A stretch of 64,000 nucleotides of DNA from Escherichia phage vB_EcoM-CHD94UKE2: sequence record MZ234031.1; one strand, written 5' to 3'. The notes under the pieces were generated by a model that was not told the origin of the DNA, ran no database searches, and was given only the letters and a program-made list of their open reading frames with translations. Below, piece by piece: positions 12,294 through 61,407 of the stretch; the first letter of the stretch is position 1, and the number at the start of each line of letters is the position of its first letter. The translations under genes were made by a program, and so were the position numbers.

Positions 12294-12509
12294 ATGTATA
12301 AATTTCGTAAAGGTTTAGCTGATTTTCTTACAACTGTAACATTCTTTCTGTTTATGGCAGTTGGAGCTATTTTCCTTATTCCTTTTATTGCTATATTTTT
12401 CGTGATTAGTTTAATTTCTCCAGAAAAGGGCTTATCTTCTAGTGAGTTTAATGAGCGTCTGGATAAAATTACTAACAAGCTGAATGCTGTTCTTGATAAA
12501 AAGGCTTAA
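12294..12509 (+). CDS. hypothetical membrane protein (71 aa)
   Basis: one long hydrophobic segment, AAGGG SD. Confidence 0.45.
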   Translation: MYKFRKGLADFLTTVTFFLFMAVGAIFLIPFIAIFFVISLISPEKGLSSSEFNERLDKITNKLNAVLDKKA

Positions 12510-12511
12510 TT

Positions 12512-12823
12512 ATGATTAGTTTTGAGCGGTATGTAGTAGAGAGTTGGAATGGTTTTGATATGTTCGGTAATGACTATTATTTCTATGAATGTAGTCTGAA
12601 CCCAAGCTTCTGGGCTGGACGTGAACAAGACCTCGAAGAAATCAACGCTCGTGCCGATTTGTTAGGTGAACTGCCTACTACTTATTTCACCTTTGATGAA
12701 TCCGGCTTCGTTATCCAGGTTTATTTTCCTGAAGAAAACTCTGGTGAGGATTCTGTTAATCCTCCTTATTGGGCTTACCAAGGAATTATTTCTCGTGGAA
12801 CAAAACTCGAACTTAAAGAATAA
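12512..12823 (+). CDS. hypothetical protein (103 aa)
   Basis: AAGG SD, acidic protein. Confidence 0.5.
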   Translation: MISFERYVVESWNGFDMFGNDYYFYECSLNPSFWAGREQDLEEINARADLLGELPTTYFTFDESGFVIQVYFPEENSGEDSVNPPYWAYQGIISRGTKLELKE

Positions 12824-15786: not shown

Positions 15787-16104
15787 ATGACTGATAAACC
15801 CGAAATTAATGATGAAGTGGAAAAGCTTATTTCTTCTATTGAAGAAAAGAACCGTCTTGAAGCAGAAAGAAAAGCAAATAAGTTATTGTCTAAAAACAAA
15901 CGCGAACTGAATCGTCTTTATAAGCACGCTCAGATCGCAGCTGAAAACAATAATTTTGCTCAATACGAATATGCTATCAAGAAAAGTCGGGATATTCTGA
16001 AACAGCCATATAACGATGAACTCATCAGTATTCTTTGGAAGACTACTAGATCGCAGATTGAGGATATGATTGATGCTTACACACGTAAAATTCAAGCGTC
16101 TTAA
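15787..16104 (+). CDS. hypothetical protein (105 aa), helical
   Basis: GAGA SD, TAATATG junction. Confidence 0.45.
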   Translation: MTDKPEINDEVEKLISSIEEKNRLEAERKANKLLSKNKRELNRLYKHAQIAAENNNFAQYEYAIKKSRDILKQPYNDELISILWKTTRSQIEDMIDAYTRKIQAS

Positions 16105-17723: not shown

Positions 17724-17738
17724 GGGCTTCGGCCCTTT
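17724..17738 (+). terminator. intrinsic terminator hairpin (GGGCUUCGGCCC)
   Basis: GGGCTTCGGCCC + TTT directly after agt stop. Confidence 0.65.
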
Positions 17739-17898
17739 AGCTTTATACGGAGTTTGATATAATGATATTTCTTGGATATGTGATACTTTTTCTTGCATTT
17801 TATCTATTCACTAGAGCATGTTGGATTGGGTTCTTTAGCACTCCAGATGGATTTATTTCAATAATTTTATTTTGCATTTCAATGACGGTTCTTGATAT

Positions 17899-18918
17899 AT
17901 GAAAATTTTAAATTTAGGTGATTGGCATTTAGGCGTTAAAGCCGATGATGAGTGGGTTCAATCTATTCAGTTGGATGGAATTAAACAAGCAATAGAATAT
18001 TCTAAGAAAAATGGAATTACTACATGGATTCAATATGGCGATATTTTTGATGTGCGAAAAGCAATCACACATAAAACTATGGAGTTCGCCCGTGAAATAG
18101 TTCAAATGCTTGATGATGCTGGTATTACCCTACATACTGTTGTAGGAAACCATGATATGCACTTTAAAAATACTTTAACCCCAAATGCTTCTACTGAGCT
18201 TTTGGCTAAATATCCTAATGTTAAAGTATATGATAAGCCTACTACAGTAGATTTTGACGGATGTTTGATTGATTTAATTCCTTGGATGTGTGAAGAAAAT
18301 ACTGGTGAAATTCTTGAGCATATCAAAACTTCATCTGCTTCTTTTTGTGTTGGTCACTGGGAACTGAATGGATTTTATTTTTATAAAGGAATGAAATCTC
18401 ATGGTCTTGAACCTGATTTCCTTAAGACTTATAAAGAGGTGTGGTCTGGTCACTTCCATACTATTTCTGAGGCTGCTAACGTCAGATATATTGGGACACC
18501 ATGGACACTAACTGCAGGTGACGAGAATGACCCTCGTGGGTTCTGGATGTTTGACACAGAAACAGAACGAATGGAATTTATTCCAAACAATACTACCTGG
18601 CATCGTAGAATTCATTATCCATTTAAAGGAAAAATTGACTATAAAGATTTTACAAATCTATCAGTACGTGTTATAGTAACTGAAGTAGACAAAAATCTGA
18701 CGAAGTTCGAATCTGAACTAGAAAAAGTTGTGCATTCATTACGAGTTGTGTCAAAGATTGATAACTCTGTCGAGTCAGATGACAGTGAAGAAGTTGAAGT
18801 TCAATCTCTTCAGACGTTGATGGAAGAGTATATTAATGCAATTCCAGACATCACTGATTCTGACCGTGAAGCACTTATTCAATATGCAAATCAGCTATAT
18901 GTAGAGGCAACACAATGA
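17899..18918 (+). CDS. 47: recombination endonuclease subunit gp47 (Mre11-like)
   Basis: 339 aa, phosphoesterase motifs GDWHLG, GNHD. Confidence 0.9.
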   Translation: MKILNLGDWHLGVKADDEWVQSIQLDGIKQAIEYSKKNGITTWIQYGDIFDVRKAITHKTMEFAREIVQMLDDAGITLHTVVGNHDMHFKNTLTPNASTELLAKYPNVKVYDKPTTVDFDGCLIDLIPWMCEENTGEILEHIKTSSASFCVGHWELNGFYFYKGMKSHGLEPDFLKTYKEVWSGHFHTISEAANVRYIGTPWTLTAGDENDPRGFWMFDTETERMEFIPNNTTWHRRIHYPFKGKIDYKDFTNLSVRVIVTEVDKNLTKFESELEKVVHSLRVVSKIDNSVESDDSEEVEVQSLQTLMEEYINAIPDITDSDREALIQYANQLYVEATQ

Positions 18919-34238: not shown

Positions 34239-35267
34239 ATGTCATCAATACCTTGGATTGATAATGAGTTTGCATACCGTGCATTAGCTCATTTACCTAA
34301 ATTCACACAAGTAAATAATAGTTCAACTTTTAAATTACGGTTTAGATGCCCAGTTTGTGGAGATTCAAAAACCGACCAGAATAAAGCCCGTGGATGGTAT
34401 TATGGTGATAATAATGAAGGAAATATTCATTGTTATAACTGTAACTATCATGCACCAATCGGAATATATTTAAAGGAGTTTGAACCTGATTTATATCGTG
34501 AGTATATCTTTGAAATAAGAAAAGAAAAAGGTAAAAGTCGTCCAGTAGAAAAACCTAAAGAACTTCCTAAACAACCTGAGAAGAAAATAATTAAATCTCT
34601 TCCGTCATGTGTTAGATTAGATAAACTGGCGGAAGACCATCCAATTATAAAATATGTAAAAGCTCGTTGTATTCCAAAGGATAAATGGAAATATCTTTGG
34701 TTTACAACCGAATGGCCTAAATTAGTTAATAGCATAGCACCGGGAACATATAAAAAGGAAATTTCTGAGCCTCGTCTTGTTATTCCAATTTATAATGCTA
34801 ATGGAAAAGCTGAGTCTTTTCAAGGACGCGCATTAAAGAAAGATGCTCCTCAAAAATATATCACCATCAAAGCTTATCCTGAAGCAACAAAAATTTATGG
34901 AGTCGAACGAGTTAAAGATGGTGATGTATATGTTCTAGAAGGACCTATAGATTCACTTTTTATTGAAAATGGTATAGCTATTACGGGTGGTCAATTAGAC
35001 CTAGAAGTTGTTCCATTTAAAGATAGACGAGTGTGGGTTTTAGATAATGAACCTCGTCACCCTGACACTATTAAACGAATGACTAAATTAGTTGATGCAG
35101 GAGAAAGGGTTATGTTTTGGGATAAATCTCCCTGGAAATCAAAAGATGTTAATGATATGATTAGAAAGGAAGGTGCAACCACTGAACAAATTATGGAATA
35201 TATGAAAAATAATATTGCCCAGGGGTTAATGGCTAAAATGCGGCTATCTAAATATGCTAAGATTTAA
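34239..35267 (+). CDS. 61: DNA primase gp61
   Basis: 342 aa, zinc ribbon CPVCGDS...CYNCNYH. Confidence 0.95.
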   Translation: MSSIPWIDNEFAYRALAHLPKFTQVNNSSTFKLRFRCPVCGDSKTDQNKARGWYYGDNNEGNIHCYNCNYHAPIGIYLKEFEPDLYREYIFEIRKEKGKSRPVEKPKELPKQPEKKIIKSLPSCVRLDKLAEDHPIIKYVKARCIPKDKWKYLWFTTEWPKLVNSIAPGTYKKEISEPRLVIPIYNANGKAESFQGRALKKDAPQKYITIKAYPEATKIYGVERVKDGDVYVLEGPIDSLFIENGIAITGGQLDLEVVPFKDRRVWVLDNEPRHPDTIKRMTKLVDAGERVMFWDKSPWKSKDVNDMIRKEGATTEQIMEYMKNNIAQGLMAKMRLSKYAKI

Positions 35268-35464
35268 ATTAACCCAACTAAAGCAAATGCTAAATCTACG
35301 AATGTATCAAGAGTAACTACTGGAATACTAACGCCATGAGCAATAGCAACTGGCGATAAAACAAAATTCCAAAGTAAAATTCCTATCATAGCAGTAATAG
35401 TAAAAGCTATACGTTTCTTATTACCTTTTATGGCATTAACAAGTGCCATTAATTTTTGTACCAT
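35264..35464 (-). CDS. small hydrophobic protein (66 aa), convergent to gene 61
   Basis: minus-strand ORF with AGGAGG 4 nt upstream of ATG; not overlapped by a plus-strand gene. Confidence 0.5.
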   Translation of the reverse strand: MVQKLMALVNAIKGNKKRIAFTITAMIGILLWNFVLSPVAIAHGVSIPVVTLDTFVDLAFALVGLI

Positions 35465-35537
35465 ATGTCCTCCTTATTGCTTTATATATTTATTGTATAA
35501 TTAATCTACTAACCCATGAATTGAAAGGAAAAATAAC

Positions 35538-36053
35538 ATGCCACATTTCAACGAATGTAGTCAACTGATCGAAGGCGCTGATAAAGCTCAAAATGAATAT
35601 TGGGATATTCTCGGTGATGAAAAAGACCCGCTGCAGGTAATGCTTGATATGCAGAAATCTTTACAGATTCGTTTAGCAAATGACCGCGAATACTGTTATC
35701 ATCCAGATAAATTAGAAACTGCCGGTGATGTTGTTTCTTGGATGCGTGAACAAAAAGACTGTATTGATGATGAATTCCGCGAACTTCTGACTTCTCTTGG
35801 TGAAATGTCACGTGGTGAAAAAGATGCATCGGCAGTTTGGAAAAAATGGAAAGCACGTTATATTGAAGCGCAAGAAAAACGCATTGATGAAATGTCCCCA
35901 GAAGATCAGCTCGAAATTAAATTTGAGCTTGTGGATATATTTCATTTCGTATTAAATATGTTTGCTGGCCTTGGAATGAATGCGGAAGAAATCTTTAAAC
36001 TTTATTATTTGAAAAATAAACATAATTTTGAACGTCAAGATAATGGGTATTAA
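35538..36053 (+). CDS. 56: dCTPase/dCTP pyrophosphatase gp56
   Basis: 171 aa, matches T4 gp56 by recall. Confidence 0.85.
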   Translation: MPHFNECSQLIEGADKAQNEYWDILGDEKDPLQVMLDMQKSLQIRLANDREYCYHPDKLETAGDVVSWMREQKDCIDDEFRELLTSLGEMSRGEKDASAVWKKWKARYIEAQEKRIDEMSPEDQLEIKFELVDIFHFVLNMFAGLGMNAEEIFKLYYLKNKHNFERQDNGY

Positions 36054-36717
36054 ACAAAAATTTTATAGAACATATATCGTAAAAGTTAGGACGCCGAAAG
36101 GCGTCTTTTGGTACGCTGGGAAACATGAATCATTTATTGTAAATCCATATGATGATAAATATCCGGGGTCAGGCAAAATACTATGGAACATATATCGTAA
36201 GTATGGTTTTAATTATAAAATACGTTGGTCAAAATGCCATGGTTCTAGAGAAAAATCATATGAAGTTGAACGCGAGCTAATATCTGCATTAAAACGTAAA
36301 CACCCAGATACTTGCATTAATATTTCTCCTGGTGGTCAGGGTGGAGAAGGAAGAAAATGGACTGAGCAACAACGATTAGAACATAAACTTAGATTAAACA
36401 ATCCTGAAACAAAAACTCGGATGAAGAATTCACAACGTATAGCCCAAAATAGAGCAGAACGAAAAGCTCGGCAATCTGAAGTAATGAAAAAGTTTTATTC
36501 GAATGGCGGAAATAAAAAGATTTCAGAAGGAACTTCAAGGGCGCAAAGAAAAGCGCCGCATTGGCATGAACCGCTTAAAAGCGAAATACATGAGTTATGG
36601 GTTTCTTTAGGTAAACCAGCAACAGGCCCGGTTGTAAAGGCGCTTAAAGGAAAATATGATGTAACAAGTTCAGCTCTTAAGAATTTAATTTACTTATTCA
36701 GAAAAGAAGATGTATAA
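36043..36717 (+). CDS. degenerate GIY-YIG endonuclease-like protein (SegF-like by position and size)
   Basis: 224 aa from ATG 36043; YPGSGKILWNIYRKYG resembles YMGSGTLIRAALLKYG of the 10820 GIY-YIG protein. Confidence 0.55.
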   Translation: MGIKQKFYRTYIVKVRTPKGVFWYAGKHESFIVNPYDDKYPGSGKILWNIYRKYGFNYKIRWSKCHGSREKSYEVERELISALKRKHPDTCINISPGGQGGEGRKWTEQQRLEHKLRLNNPETKTRMKNSQRIAQNRAERKARQSEVMKKFYSNGGNKKISEGTSRAQRKAPHWHEPLKSEIHELWVSLGKPATGPVVKALKGKYDVTSSALKNLIYLFRKEDV

Positions 36718-36750: not shown

Positions 36751-36996
36751 ATGGCTAGTACTCGCGGTTATGTTAATATTAAAACATTTGAGCAGAAATT
36801 AGATGGAAATAAGAAAATTGAAGGAAAGGAAATTTCTGTAGCTTTCCCTCTTTATTCTGACGTTCACAAAATTTCTGGTGCTCATTACCAGACGTTCCCT
36901 TCAGAAAAAGCAGCATATACTACTGTATATGAAGAAAATCAGCGTACTGAATGGATTGCTGCAAACGAAGATTTGTGGAAAGTAACTGGTGGTTAA
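36751..36996 (+). CDS. soc: small outer capsid protein Soc
   Basis: 81 aa, MASTRGYVNIKTFEQKLDGNKKIEGKEISVAFPLYSDVHK... Confidence 0.95.
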   Translation: MASTRGYVNIKTFEQKLDGNKKIEGKEISVAFPLYSDVHKISGAHYQTFPSEKAAYTTVYEENQRTEWIAANEDLWKVTGG

Positions 36997-45521: not shown

Positions 45522-46010
45522 ATGATTATTAATATTGGTGAAATTGCTCGTGTATCTGATAAATCCCGTTCTAAAGCAGCAGGAAAATTGGTCGAAGTTG
45601 TAAGCATTCAGCTTAAACACGGTGTTAAAGATGAAGATTCTGAAGTAAAAGTACGTATCATTGCTAAAGATGGAATGTCTAAGCCCCAGTTTGGTTATGT
45701 TCGATGGAAATTTCTTGAGCCTGCGTTTTTGAAAGCTGTTCCTGCTAAAGGAATTGAAACGATTGATACTTCGCATGTAGGTGTAGACTTTAAGTGGAAA
45801 CTCGGTCAAGCTATCAAGTTCATTGCTCCTTGTGAATTTAAATTTATCAAAGATGATGGAAAGGCTGTTTATACTCGCGCTATGTGTGGATACATTACCG
45901 ATCAATGGGTAGAAGATGGCGTTAAGTTGTACAACGTGGTATTTTTAGGAACATATAAAGTCATTCCTGAAAGTTGGATTAAACACTACAGCAATGCTCT
46001 CTATGCATAA
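45522..46010 (+). CDS. hypothetical protein (162 aa)
   Basis: size and position fit T4 motB but sequence not recognised; paralogous to the 181-aa upstream protein. Confidence 0.5.
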   Translation: MIINIGEIARVSDKSRSKAAGKLVEVVSIQLKHGVKDEDSEVKVRIIAKDGMSKPQFGYVRWKFLEPAFLKAVPAKGIETIDTSHVGVDFKWKLGQAIKFIAPCEFKFIKDDGKAVYTRAMCGYITDQWVEDGVKLYNVVFLGTYKVIPESWIKHYSNALYA

Positions 46011-46040
46011 AGTTTAAAATTTTTTCATAAAACTATATAC

Positions 46041-46083
46041 ATCAGTAGTTGATTATGGTACTATATCAATATCAACTACTGAT
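46041..46083 (+). repeat. 13-bp perfect inverted repeat flanking a promoter -10-like TGGTACTATA
   Basis: ATCAGTAGTTGAT 46041-46053 pairs with ATCAACTACTGAT 46071-46083. Confidence 0.8.
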
Positions 46084-46181
46084 ACAGAAAACAACTTGGA
46101 GAATAAAATGGATAATTCGTTAAAGGTGCGCTGATACTCTTCTGAAACGCATCGCTCCAATGTTCAATTAATGAGGAAATT

Positions 46182-46994: not shown

Positions 46995-47366
46995 ATGTTT
47001 AAAATCGGTAAGAAATATCGCATTCGCGAAGGTGAAGAAAAGAAATATCTATTTTCTGCTATTTATAGGAATGGTTCTATTAATGCTGTAATATCTACAA
47101 GCGAATTTATCGTTGAAGATATGAAAGGTAATAATGTTACAATGATTAGTACAGCATCTGGAAATGACGGAAAAATTCTTCACAGTTTTCAGAGTAATGT
47201 TCTAATTTATGATGAAGAATTTGACTTCTTCGAAGAAGTTCCCGAAGGTTTTGCTTTTGAATGCACTATCACTATGAAATCTGGTGACCCTCTTTCTTTT
47301 ACAGTTAAAGATGAAGGAAGTCGCTTGAGAATTATTAGTCTTCTTCAAGCCATTAAATTTAAGTGA
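46995..47366 (+). CDS. hypothetical protein (123 aa)
   Basis: AAGGG SD. Confidence 0.5.
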   Translation: MFKIGKKYRIREGEEKKYLFSAIYRNGSINAVISTSEFIVEDMKGNNVTMISTASGNDGKILHSFQSNVLIYDEEFDFFEEVPEGFAFECTITMKSGDPLSFTVKDEGSRLRIISLLQAIKFK

Positions 47367-60720: not shown

Positions 60721-61377
60721 TTATTTAGCCCTTCCTAATATTCTGGCCGCCTGAGCACATATTGATTCAAGGCGGTCATTACTTATATGATCATTTCTAT
60801 ACCAGTACATGGTTATTGTTCCAGCATAGATATTATCCAAATTAAAATATGGACAACTGTACATGTAGTTTATTTCGGGAGTAGGCTTTTTAGTTGGTAA
60901 AAAAGCAAATTTTGAGTCGGAATAATAATGACGTCCATTTAAATGAACTGTATATTCATCCATAGTTTTATCAACAGGATATCCTCCAAGTGATTTTTCA
61001 CTTATTGTTGAAGGTAATTTTCCTTCATATGCTATAATATCAACAAAATAGTTTAAGTTTTTAGGGCGGAAAGAATACACCGCACTAAAGTCTGCCTCAG
61101 ATGATATATGAACTATCTGGAGTTGTTCCAGGGCGACAGATTCAAAGCGTGCATTTCTTTCCTTTTCAATAATTTCACTGTATGTTTCATACTTTGATTG
61201 CTTATAGTACTCAAAGAAACTATCTCCCCTATACCAAACAATCGCCATCATAAATAAAAGAATTACGACAGCTACCCGGGAAGCAAGAACTTTCCCGGTA
61301 GCGTTATCTTTGAACAAGCGATCTAGAACACCAAACAGAATACCAGAGGGCGAAAATGATATTCTAGGTGCTGCCAT
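60721..61377 (-). CDS. t: holin T
   Basis: 218 aa, N-terminal TM helix then large periplasmic domain; AAGGAGGG SD; abuts asiA stop. Confidence 0.95.
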   Translation of the reverse strand: MAAPRISFSPSGILFGVLDRLFKDNATGKVLASRVAVVILLFMMAIVWYRGDSFFEYYKQSKYETYSEIIEKERNARFESVALEQLQIVHISSEADFSAVYSFRPKNLNYFVDIIAYEGKLPSTISEKSLGGYPVDKTMDEYTVHLNGRHYYSDSKFAFLPTKKPTPEINYMYSCPYFNLDNIYAGTITMYWYRNDHISNDRLESICAQAARILGRAK

Positions 61378-61407
61378 AGACCCTCCTTTTAAGGGTATTT
61401 ATTCACA

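Follow-up and report, generated by a model that had tools for sequence, protein, structure and literature searches.

Here we report that a small gene lying on the strand opposite to its neighbours, between the primase gene 61 and the dCTPase gene 56 of Escherichia phage vB_EcoM-CHD94UKE2, belongs to a protein family conserved among T4-type phages, and that T4 itself carries an intact copy that its reference annotation omits. The DNA analysed is a 64,000-nucleotide (nt) segment of a Tequatrovirus (T4-like) genome (MZ234031.1; hereafter referred to as the window), in which the gene forms a 66-codon open reading frame (ORF) on the minus strand. Comparisons of substitution patterns across related phages show that the ORF is a real gene under protein-level selection. 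Its strand and a conserved late-type box upstream of its start codon indicate that the gene is very probably expressed late in infection, and its product is predicted to be a small protein of the inner membrane.

The ORF begins with ATG and occupies, according to both the ORF listing and the sequence itself, much of the minus strand of the 61–56 intergenic space (Table 1). A preliminary description of this DNA had characterized it as hydrophobic, 66 codons long and preceded by AGGAGG at a distance of 4 nt, and had given the intergenic space as 270 bp; sequence, hydropathy and the coordinates of the two flanking genes (gene 61 ending at 35267 and gene 56 starting at 35538) bear out each of these points. 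Read on the minus strand, the start region is ordered AATAAATA-TATAAAGCAATA-AGGAGG-ACAT-ATG, with AGGAGG at 35474–35469 and ATG at 35464–35462, and a GGAG-type Shine–Dalgarno sequence precedes the ORF in all of the orthologues examined. On the 3′ side of gene 56 follow a GIY-YIG segF-like ORF and then soc, as they do in T4. A 501-bp stretch around the ORF is 100% identical to the Escherichia phages vB_EcoM-G3F7 and G3F10, and the window protein is already present in GenBank as the hypothetical protein QZI81745.1 (G3F7; G3F7_068). A hidden Markov model (HMM) search against 725 six-frame ORFs detected no paralogue in the window. The ORF had also been described as the only convincing minus-strand ORF of the early region, which holds for lengths of at least 60 amino acids; the GenBank record of a near-identical phage annotates two further minus-strand coding sequences there, of 40 and 35 amino acids.

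Table 1. Positions in the window of the ORF, its signals and the neighbouring elements.
Feature	Position	Strand	Basis
CDS of the 66-aa small membrane protein (predicted)	35264–35464	−	PHROG 2024; orthologue of RB69ORF029w
Shine–Dalgarno sequence AGGAGG, 4 nt before ATG	35469–35474	−	Direct sequence reading
Late-promoter-like box AATAAATA, ending 22 nt before ATG (putative activity)	35487–35494	−	
Convergent stop codons of the ORF and primase gene 61, 4-nt overlap	35264–35267	Both	Coordinates
Gene 61 (primase)	34239–35267	+	ORF listing
Gene 56 (dCTPase)	35538–36053	+	ORF listing
Terminator-like hairpin ATGGCATTAACAAGTGCCAT with T-run, after gene 61	35430–35459	+	Terminator scan
Middle-promoter-like site for gene 56	35477–35501	+	Sequence reading

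Pairwise Nei–Gojobori comparisons gave ratios of non-synonymous to synonymous substitution (dN/dS) between 0.10 and 0.36: 0.16–0.30 within Tequatrovirus, 0.10 within Mosigvirus and ~0.35 within Gaprivervirus. Between genera the ratio is ~0.22, at synonymous sites that are saturated (pS 0.7–0.8) and with proteins that are ~50% identical. These low ratios (0.1–0.35), together with the saturation at synonymous sites in comparisons across genera, show that the protein is the target of selection. The window protein shares 53% identity with its HX01 counterpart, compared with 73% for both gp61 and gp56, and 47% with that of VR26, compared with 61% for gp61 and 82% for gp56. Judged from these alignments, it evolves faster than the products of the neighbouring genes and is still clearly constrained.

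The gene is widely distributed among relatives of T4. A tblastn search found the ORF protein in 692 phage records, in 685 of them at 80% coverage or more; ~500 of the 692 are at least 80% identical (Tequatrovirus) and 190 are less than 60% identical (Mosigvirus, Gaprivervirus and others). A second, diverged type (hereafter type B) occupies the same slot in ~130 further records. In Gaprivervirus phages there are two copies in tandem, the second of them diverged (23% identity), and type B is the sole copy, adjoining the primase stop codon, in Dhakavirus JS10, Marfavirus Klebsiella phage PhiKpNIH-6, Mosugukvirus Pectobacterium phage PM2, Kanagawavirus Kosakonia phage 305 and others. Our conservation sample covered eight genera; the ORF retains 63–67 codons with no disruption of the frame in Tequatrovirus, Mosigvirus, Gaprivervirus, Dhakavirus, Marfavirus, Mosugukvirus and Kanagawavirus, the hosts of which range from Escherichia to Klebsiella, Pectobacterium and Kosakonia. 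The ORF thus persists in close relatives, T4 and T2 included, in line with the conservation check that had been proposed for it. As single departures from this pattern, a scripted ortholog extraction recovered no intact ORF from ECCR664, and the record of an evolved T4-like phage, T4_ev240, has a 1-nt deletion in an A-run that shifts the reading frame, which hints at either dispensability in the laboratory or a sequencing error.

The position of the gene is as conserved as its frame. Convergence with the 3′ end of gene 61, and abutment on it, were found in the window, T4, T2, HX01, VR26, JK42, JS10, PhiKpNIH-6, PM2, Kosakonia phage 305 and RB69, and the identical 4-nt overlap of the stop codons recurs in T4, T2, HX01, JK42, PhiKpNIH-6, Kosakonia phage 305, RB69 and the second copy of VR26. 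The gene 61 side is constant, whereas the neighbour on the other side varies (gene 56, dam, an HNH endonuclease gene or other ORFs). The arrangement, which the preliminary description had considered unusual, is in fact the syntenic standard of T4-type phages, shared by T4, T2, RB69 and, with both types taken together, roughly 800 other records. In T4, dam sits between the ORF and gene 56. The earlier remark that T4 has dam nearby and the window has none agrees with the T4 gene order and with our searches: tblastn with T4 Dam yielded no homologue in the window (best E = 3.2), and there is no match at E ≤ 1 in the whole genome of G3F7, the nearest sequenced relative.

All of these proteins fall into one family. 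Residues 2–66 of the window protein align with positions 1–65 of the 65-position profile of PHROG 2024 (E = 2.4e-30), a family labelled as of unknown function, and type B members match the same profile (E = 1.7e-15 to 2.8e-28). The T2 record annotates the ORF as a hypothetical protein, and the RB69 copy has been annotated as RB69ORF029w (NP_861719) since the original submission in 2003. The T4 copy is intact, with 66 codons and 92% identity to the window protein; it lies at 17738..17938 of NC_000866, in the 309-bp space between dam and gene 61, where RefSeq has no feature, and the exact T4 protein is absent from the NCBI protein sources of a 15-billion-sequence collection. A profile search of 1.84 billion representative proteins returned six matches, all within the family, and a word-indexed profile search of a 5.8-billion-sequence collection (90% identity) returned 115 clusters, all on T4-like contigs, many of ~160–175 kb. 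Ten related loci were found in IMG/VR. The name given to family members is 'hypothetical protein', the exceptions being a single 'Holin' in UniRef and scattered 'DNA packaging ATPase' labels. As far as these collections reach, the family is confined to T4-type phages. PHROG 2024, with RB69ORF029w, is the closest known counterpart and does not differ from the window gene: the length, the position convergent with gene 61 and the predicted single transmembrane (TM) segment are the same. To this, sequence comparison adds that an intact copy is present but unannotated in T4, that type B belongs to the same family and that the core of a late promoter is conserved throughout.

The T4 late promoter is TATAAATA at positions −13 to −6 (PMC1524935). 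The box AATAAATA upstream of the ORF would place a late transcription start at about 35481; the resulting leader would be 17 nt long and include the Shine–Dalgarno sequence. An ATAAATA core lies 20–28 nt upstream of the ATG in eight of the eight genera sampled. The base at −13 varies: it is A in the window, in the Mosigvirus phages HX01, JK42 and RB69 and in JS10, G in T4 and T2 (GATAAATA) and in PM2, and C in VR26, and the box is a perfect TATAAATA in PhiKpNIH-6 and Kosakonia phage 305. A at −13 is the commonest variant in T4, found in 9 of 50 late sites listed (PMC2988020), and T at this position is poorly conserved among T4 relatives (PMC1524935). The G of T4 and T2 is a rarer deviation from the consensus and counts against a late promoter, and the RB69 site, at 16032, is absent from the HMM-based list of 31 RB69 late promoters of Nolan et al.

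ATAAATA is four-fold depleted in the window, with 10 copies observed compared with 38.4 ± 6.5 in shuffled sequences, and the remaining copies precede late genes, among them TATAAATA at 36713 before soc and GAATAAATA at 61403 on the minus strand, 18 nt ahead of the holin gene t. Of the 55 ATAAATA sites in the G3F7 genome, 25 have an ORF with a Shine–Dalgarno sequence and ATG 5–45 nt downstream, compared with 1.8 ± 1.4 for random positions; these 25 include the site that precedes the ORF described here. In T4, early and middle transcripts all have one polarity, and late transcripts alone use both (Geiduschek and Kassavetis, PMC2988020). The ORF is on the strand of the late genes t, 38 and 37 (60.7–64 kb), opposite to the early genes of the window. 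Late expression, suggested in the preliminary description, is very probable given this late-strand orientation and the AATAAATA core conserved in eight genera, from which we also infer late-promoter activity of the site. Our literature search found no paper describing the gene or its expression, apart from supplement entries for RB69ORF029w, and the T4 transcriptome and proteome papers searched do not mention antisense or unannotated features.

The protein is predicted to have one main membrane-spanning helix. Kyte–Doolittle means over 19 residues are ~2.0 for residues 19–41 and 1.86 for residues 45–66, and an AlphaFold2 model computed from an eight-sequence alignment (mean pLDDT 76) contains helices at residues 2–12, 16–42 and 52–63. 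The N-terminal helix, amphipathic with a hydrophobic moment of 1.73, precedes the basic segment KGNKKR. An orientation with the N terminus inside is likely, because five basic and no acidic residues precede the long helix and D53 and D57 follow it. The charged cluster (K13, K16, K17 and R18) is exclusively N-terminal, and the chain ends in ...LAFALVGLI. The C-terminal segment contains E, H and R in type B and Kosakonia phage proteins and there lacks membrane character; one TM helix followed by a periplasmic interfacial helix is therefore the favoured topology. In the Tequatrovirus form, the C-terminal segment, with its hydropathy of 1.86, may instead be a second TM helix, which would make a two-helix hairpin. 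For RB69ORF029w, a single TM segment at residues 21–41 was given by a TMHMM-type prediction (Nolan et al. 2006, supplement).

In an 11-sequence alignment of both types, W32, N33, P38, G44, P48 and V50 are invariant and A40 and G64 nearly so. They define a core, W-N-x4-P-x5-G-x3-P-x-V, within and after one hydrophobic helix, and the invariant residues fall in the outer half of the membrane helix and in the loop that follows. The protein has no match in Pfam or NCBIfam at E ≤ 10 and none in PADLOC. PDB sequence profiles gave noise only (E = 1.6), Foldseek gave no matches against the PDB, and against BFVD it returned only family members and weak small-helix noise; the rank-1 'Holin' match in BFVD is a family member with an unverified name, and other holin-named matches have E > 5. 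In an in silico digest, LMALVNAIK is the only tryptic peptide likely to be detectable.

The 5′ end of the ORF and the DNA upstream of it overlap elements of the early strand. The arms of the terminator-like hairpin after gene 61 (35430–35449, followed by the T-run) lie inside codons 6–12 of the ORF, and the equivalent hairpin is annotated as a terminator in Yersinia phage fPS-2. The middle-promoter-like site for gene 56 consists of TTGCTTTA at 35477–35484, which we take to match the MotA-box consensus, an 11-nt spacer and TATAAT at 35496–35501. For fPS-2, a middle promoter has been predicted at the corresponding position, and in T4 the counterpart is found upstream of gene 56 and oriA. On the other strand, the spacer of the window site contains the late box of the ORF, and ~25 bp are common to the late box and the gene 56 middle promoter (the oriA region in T4). 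These overlaps, along with the missing annotation in the T4 RefSeq record, would fit a non-gene whose open frame is a by-product of conserved regulatory DNA (the gene 61 terminator, the middle promoter or the oriA region), a reading that we regard as extremely improbable. The hairpin is kept in Tequatrovirus and absent from Mosigvirus and Gaprivervirus, yet outside Tequatrovirus the frame persists with its length and start signals; the hairpin therefore does not explain the conservation of the ORF and is ruled out as its cause. The regulatory elements account for only ~30 of the ORF's 201 nt, substitutions cluster at synonymous sites, and an open frame of 66 codons, which at such a composition has an estimated chance of less than 1% per frame, recurs in every genus.

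Two further explanations accept the gene and assign it another kind of product or action. In one, the main product would be an RNA antisense to primase gene 61, which would shut primase off late or resolve convergent transcription, with the protein being secondary. The gene is invariably linked to the 3′ end of gene 61, the 4-nt stop overlap in most genera means that a late transcript must enter gene 61, and no minus-strand terminator-like site was detected for ~3.5 kb downstream of the ORF, so the transcript probably runs antisense into gene 61. The term antisense, applied to the gene itself in the preliminary description, is imprecise, as the ORF and gene 61 overlap by only 4 nt. However, a promoter for antisense RNA would require neither an open frame of 66 codons nor a strong Shine–Dalgarno sequence, both of which are kept across eight genera, and the dN/dS values of 0.1–0.36, the saturated synonymous sites and the spread of invariant residues over the protein speak against an RNA as the main product, which we consider improbable. 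Because the protein is selected, an RNA role can only be additional; the run into gene 61 may be a secondary function and a possible reason why the gene is locked to the primase stop codon. In the other, which takes up the toxin-like peptide of the preliminary description, the protein would form pores or be toxic to the membrane (as a holin, pinholin or toxin) and would depolarize the inner membrane at the end of infection, as its small size, strong hydrophobicity, late expression and possible two membrane segments might suggest. Transcripts reading through gene 61 on the early strand would be antisense to the ORF, as the antitoxin RNA of a type I toxin would be, but show no sign of a regulatory role. 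UniRef gives one member (A0A482MZV5) the name 'Holin', and Nolan et al. noted that some novel ORFs of T4-like phages appear to be deleterious when cloned, a general remark that does not concern this ORF. Against this stand several observations: the protein matches no holin family in Pfam at E ≤ 10; the 'Holin' name is a single automatic label, unverified, set against hundreds of entries called 'hypothetical protein'; a T holin is already encoded by the phage, at 60721–61377 on the minus strand, and G3F7 annotates a holin, rI and a spanin-like Rz1 lipoprotein; and the gene adjoins no lysis gene. The C terminus of a holin is typically a hydrophilic tail rich in charges, whereas here the charged region is N-terminal and the C terminus is hydrophobic. 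The invariant polar and proline residues suggest specific contact instead, and we hold a pore or toxin to be hardly likely.

The best explanation, and in our judgement a likely one, is that this conserved T4-type gene is expressed late and encodes an inner-membrane protein that makes helix–helix contact with a partner. The gene would be transcribed late from its own gp55-type promoter and translated from its strong Shine–Dalgarno sequence, and the 66-residue product would insert into the inner membrane. The N-terminal amphipathic helix and the KGNKKR cluster would lie on the cytoplasmic side, one TM helix would span roughly residues 19–42, and the C-terminal segment of ~24 residues would face or re-enter the periplasmic leaflet. 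As the invariant residues are polar, aromatic, proline or glycine, the protein would act through a specific intramembrane or juxtamembrane contact with a membrane partner, rather than as an unspecific pore. Both this topology and the action through a partner are deduced from the sequences and the model.

Which partner this would be is a matter of conjecture: as the protein has no similarity to any characterized protein, a functional guess draws on its architecture and timing. The partner could belong to the envelope machinery at the end of infection, with a role in the timing or inhibition of lysis around holin T or in late superinfection exclusion, a suggestion that we make tentatively and consider doubtful; counter-defence is another envelope role that can be guessed at. 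A more specific version, in which T4 has a missing component of the T-even end-game at the membrane (a modulator of holin T or of lysis inhibition, or a late superinfection or anti-defence factor) and read-through from its gene silences primase late, seems to us rather unlikely. If it were true, the component would have escaped screens because RefSeq-based libraries omit the ORF and because a single tryptic peptide, LMALVNAIK, is likely to be detectable.

Known systems offer partial parallels. T4 soc is likewise a small late gene in an early block, and in the window it lies ~1.3 kb away, at 36751–36996, behind its TATAAATA box; soc, however, shares its strand with the early genes, and its product is a soluble capsid decoration protein, whereas the ORF is on the opposite strand and encodes a predicted membrane protein. 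Holin T and antiholin RI are late as well, and the ORF protein likely resembles them in having a single N-terminal membrane helix with a periplasmic C terminus; the t gene of the window has the same AATAAATA variant 18 nt before its ATG. T (218 amino acids) and RI (97 amino acids) have sizeable periplasmic domains, compared with ~24 residues past the helix in the ORF protein. Neither sequence nor profile similarity to holin T or RI was found for the ORF protein, and the gene is not located with the lysis genes. AcrZ, MgrB and MgtS are small bacterial membrane proteins that regulate larger membrane complexes. By analogy only, the ORF protein may be compared with them, being of similar size, with a single helix and a few conserved polar or aromatic residues, and with a proposed action through the binding of a partner within the membrane; there is no homology, and the protein described here is of phage origin.

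The gene was already catalogued as hypothetical, and it is an ordinary sequence feature of these phages, in an arrangement that is the rule. Because the T4 reference lacks this conserved orthologue, RB69ORF029w was counted as a 'novel ORF' specific to RB69, and gene-by-gene screens of T4 will have missed the ORF. What Nolan et al. 2006 state on RB69ORF029w calls for small corrections on two points: T4 does have an orthologue, unannotated, and a late-type box upstream of the ORF is conserved. Very few late-type genes run clockwise within the long block of early genes, and this is one of them; its conservation from Escherichia to Kosakonia phages probably reflects a useful role at the membrane late in infection.

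The 66-codon minus-strand gene has an intact T4 orthologue of the same length (NC_000866, 17738..17938; positions 4239-4439 of L001, our T4 locus), which lies in the 309-bp gap between dam and gene 61. The T4 RefSeq record carries no feature at these coordinates, and no entry from NCBI sources in the protein collection searched matches the T4 protein sequence exactly. In the record of T4_ev240 (LR597657; L023), a 1-nt deletion at about codon 16, by which the run AATAAGAAACG becomes AATAA-AAACG, shifts the frame, and the resulting 41-aa remnant is the sole annotation of the gene there. Either the A-run was misread in sequencing, or the gene has been lost from an evolved laboratory phage. The Gaprivervirus phages VR26, VR25 and VR20 (loci L004, L013, L014 and L016, positions 1495-1901) encode two diverged small membrane proteins in tandem, with ~23% identity between the copies and 8 nt between the genes, the second copy adjoining the primase stop codon. 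Other genera retain just one of the two protein types.

What separates gene 56 from the small ORF (35465-35537) differs among close relatives (loci L001, L002 and L018). This interval is empty in the window, is occupied by dam in T4, and in T2 carries a 181-aa ORF as well as dam. An HNH or homing endonuclease of ~650 bp takes this position in many other Tequatroviruses. The complete genome of vB_EcoM-G3F7 (G3F7), the nearest relative, has no dam gene. Beyond gene 56, the segF-like ORF contains an internal ATAAATA at 36155 and is followed by soc, which starts at 36751, with TATAAATA at 36713. According to the G3F7 annotation, the early region also contains two further putative minus-strand CDSs, of 40 and 35 aa.

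Features in and around the 61-56 region and elsewhere on the minus strand
Feature	Position	Strand	Details
Terminator-like hairpin and downstream run	35430-35459	+	Perfect 8-bp hairpin ATGGCATTAACAAGTGCCAT, then TAATTTTTGT; early strand
Middle-promoter-like site, gene 56	35477-35501	+	MotA box TTGCTTTA, 11-nt spacer, then TATAAT
Late box of small ORF	35487-35494	-	Inside spacer of gene 56 middle-promoter-like site, opposite strand
GIY-YIG segF-like homing endonuclease ORF, 229 aa	36028-36717	+	26-nt overlap with end of gene 56
Tiny annotated CDS	~12506-12628 (G3F7 12451-12573)	-	Early region; G3F7 record annotation
Tiny annotated CDS	~46053-46160 (G3F7 45998-46105)	-	Early region; G3F7 record annotation
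Perfect TATAAATA	47060-47067	- (late strand)	Within plus-strand early gene 46995-47366

Copies of the late-promoter core ATAAATA are strongly depleted: the window has 10, versus 38.4 ± 6.5 expected, and the 168-kb G3F7 genome has 55. Of these G3F7 copies, 45% are located 5-45 nt upstream of an ORF with a Shine-Dalgarno sequence and an ATG. The perfect minus-strand match within the early gene at 46995-47366 has no ORF downstream; it may drive late antisense transcription, or it may have survived by chance.

The terminator-like hairpin directly 3′ of gene 61 falls within codons 6-12 of the small ORF on the opposite strand. It is kept in Tequatrovirus only, and a terminator is annotated at the equivalent site in the record of Yersinia phage fPS-2. 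The T4 counterpart of the middle-promoter-like site of gene 56 is the oriA promoter region. Because the spacer of this site also contains the small ORF's late box on the opposite strand, ~25 bp would be common to two divergent predicted promoters of different temporal classes.
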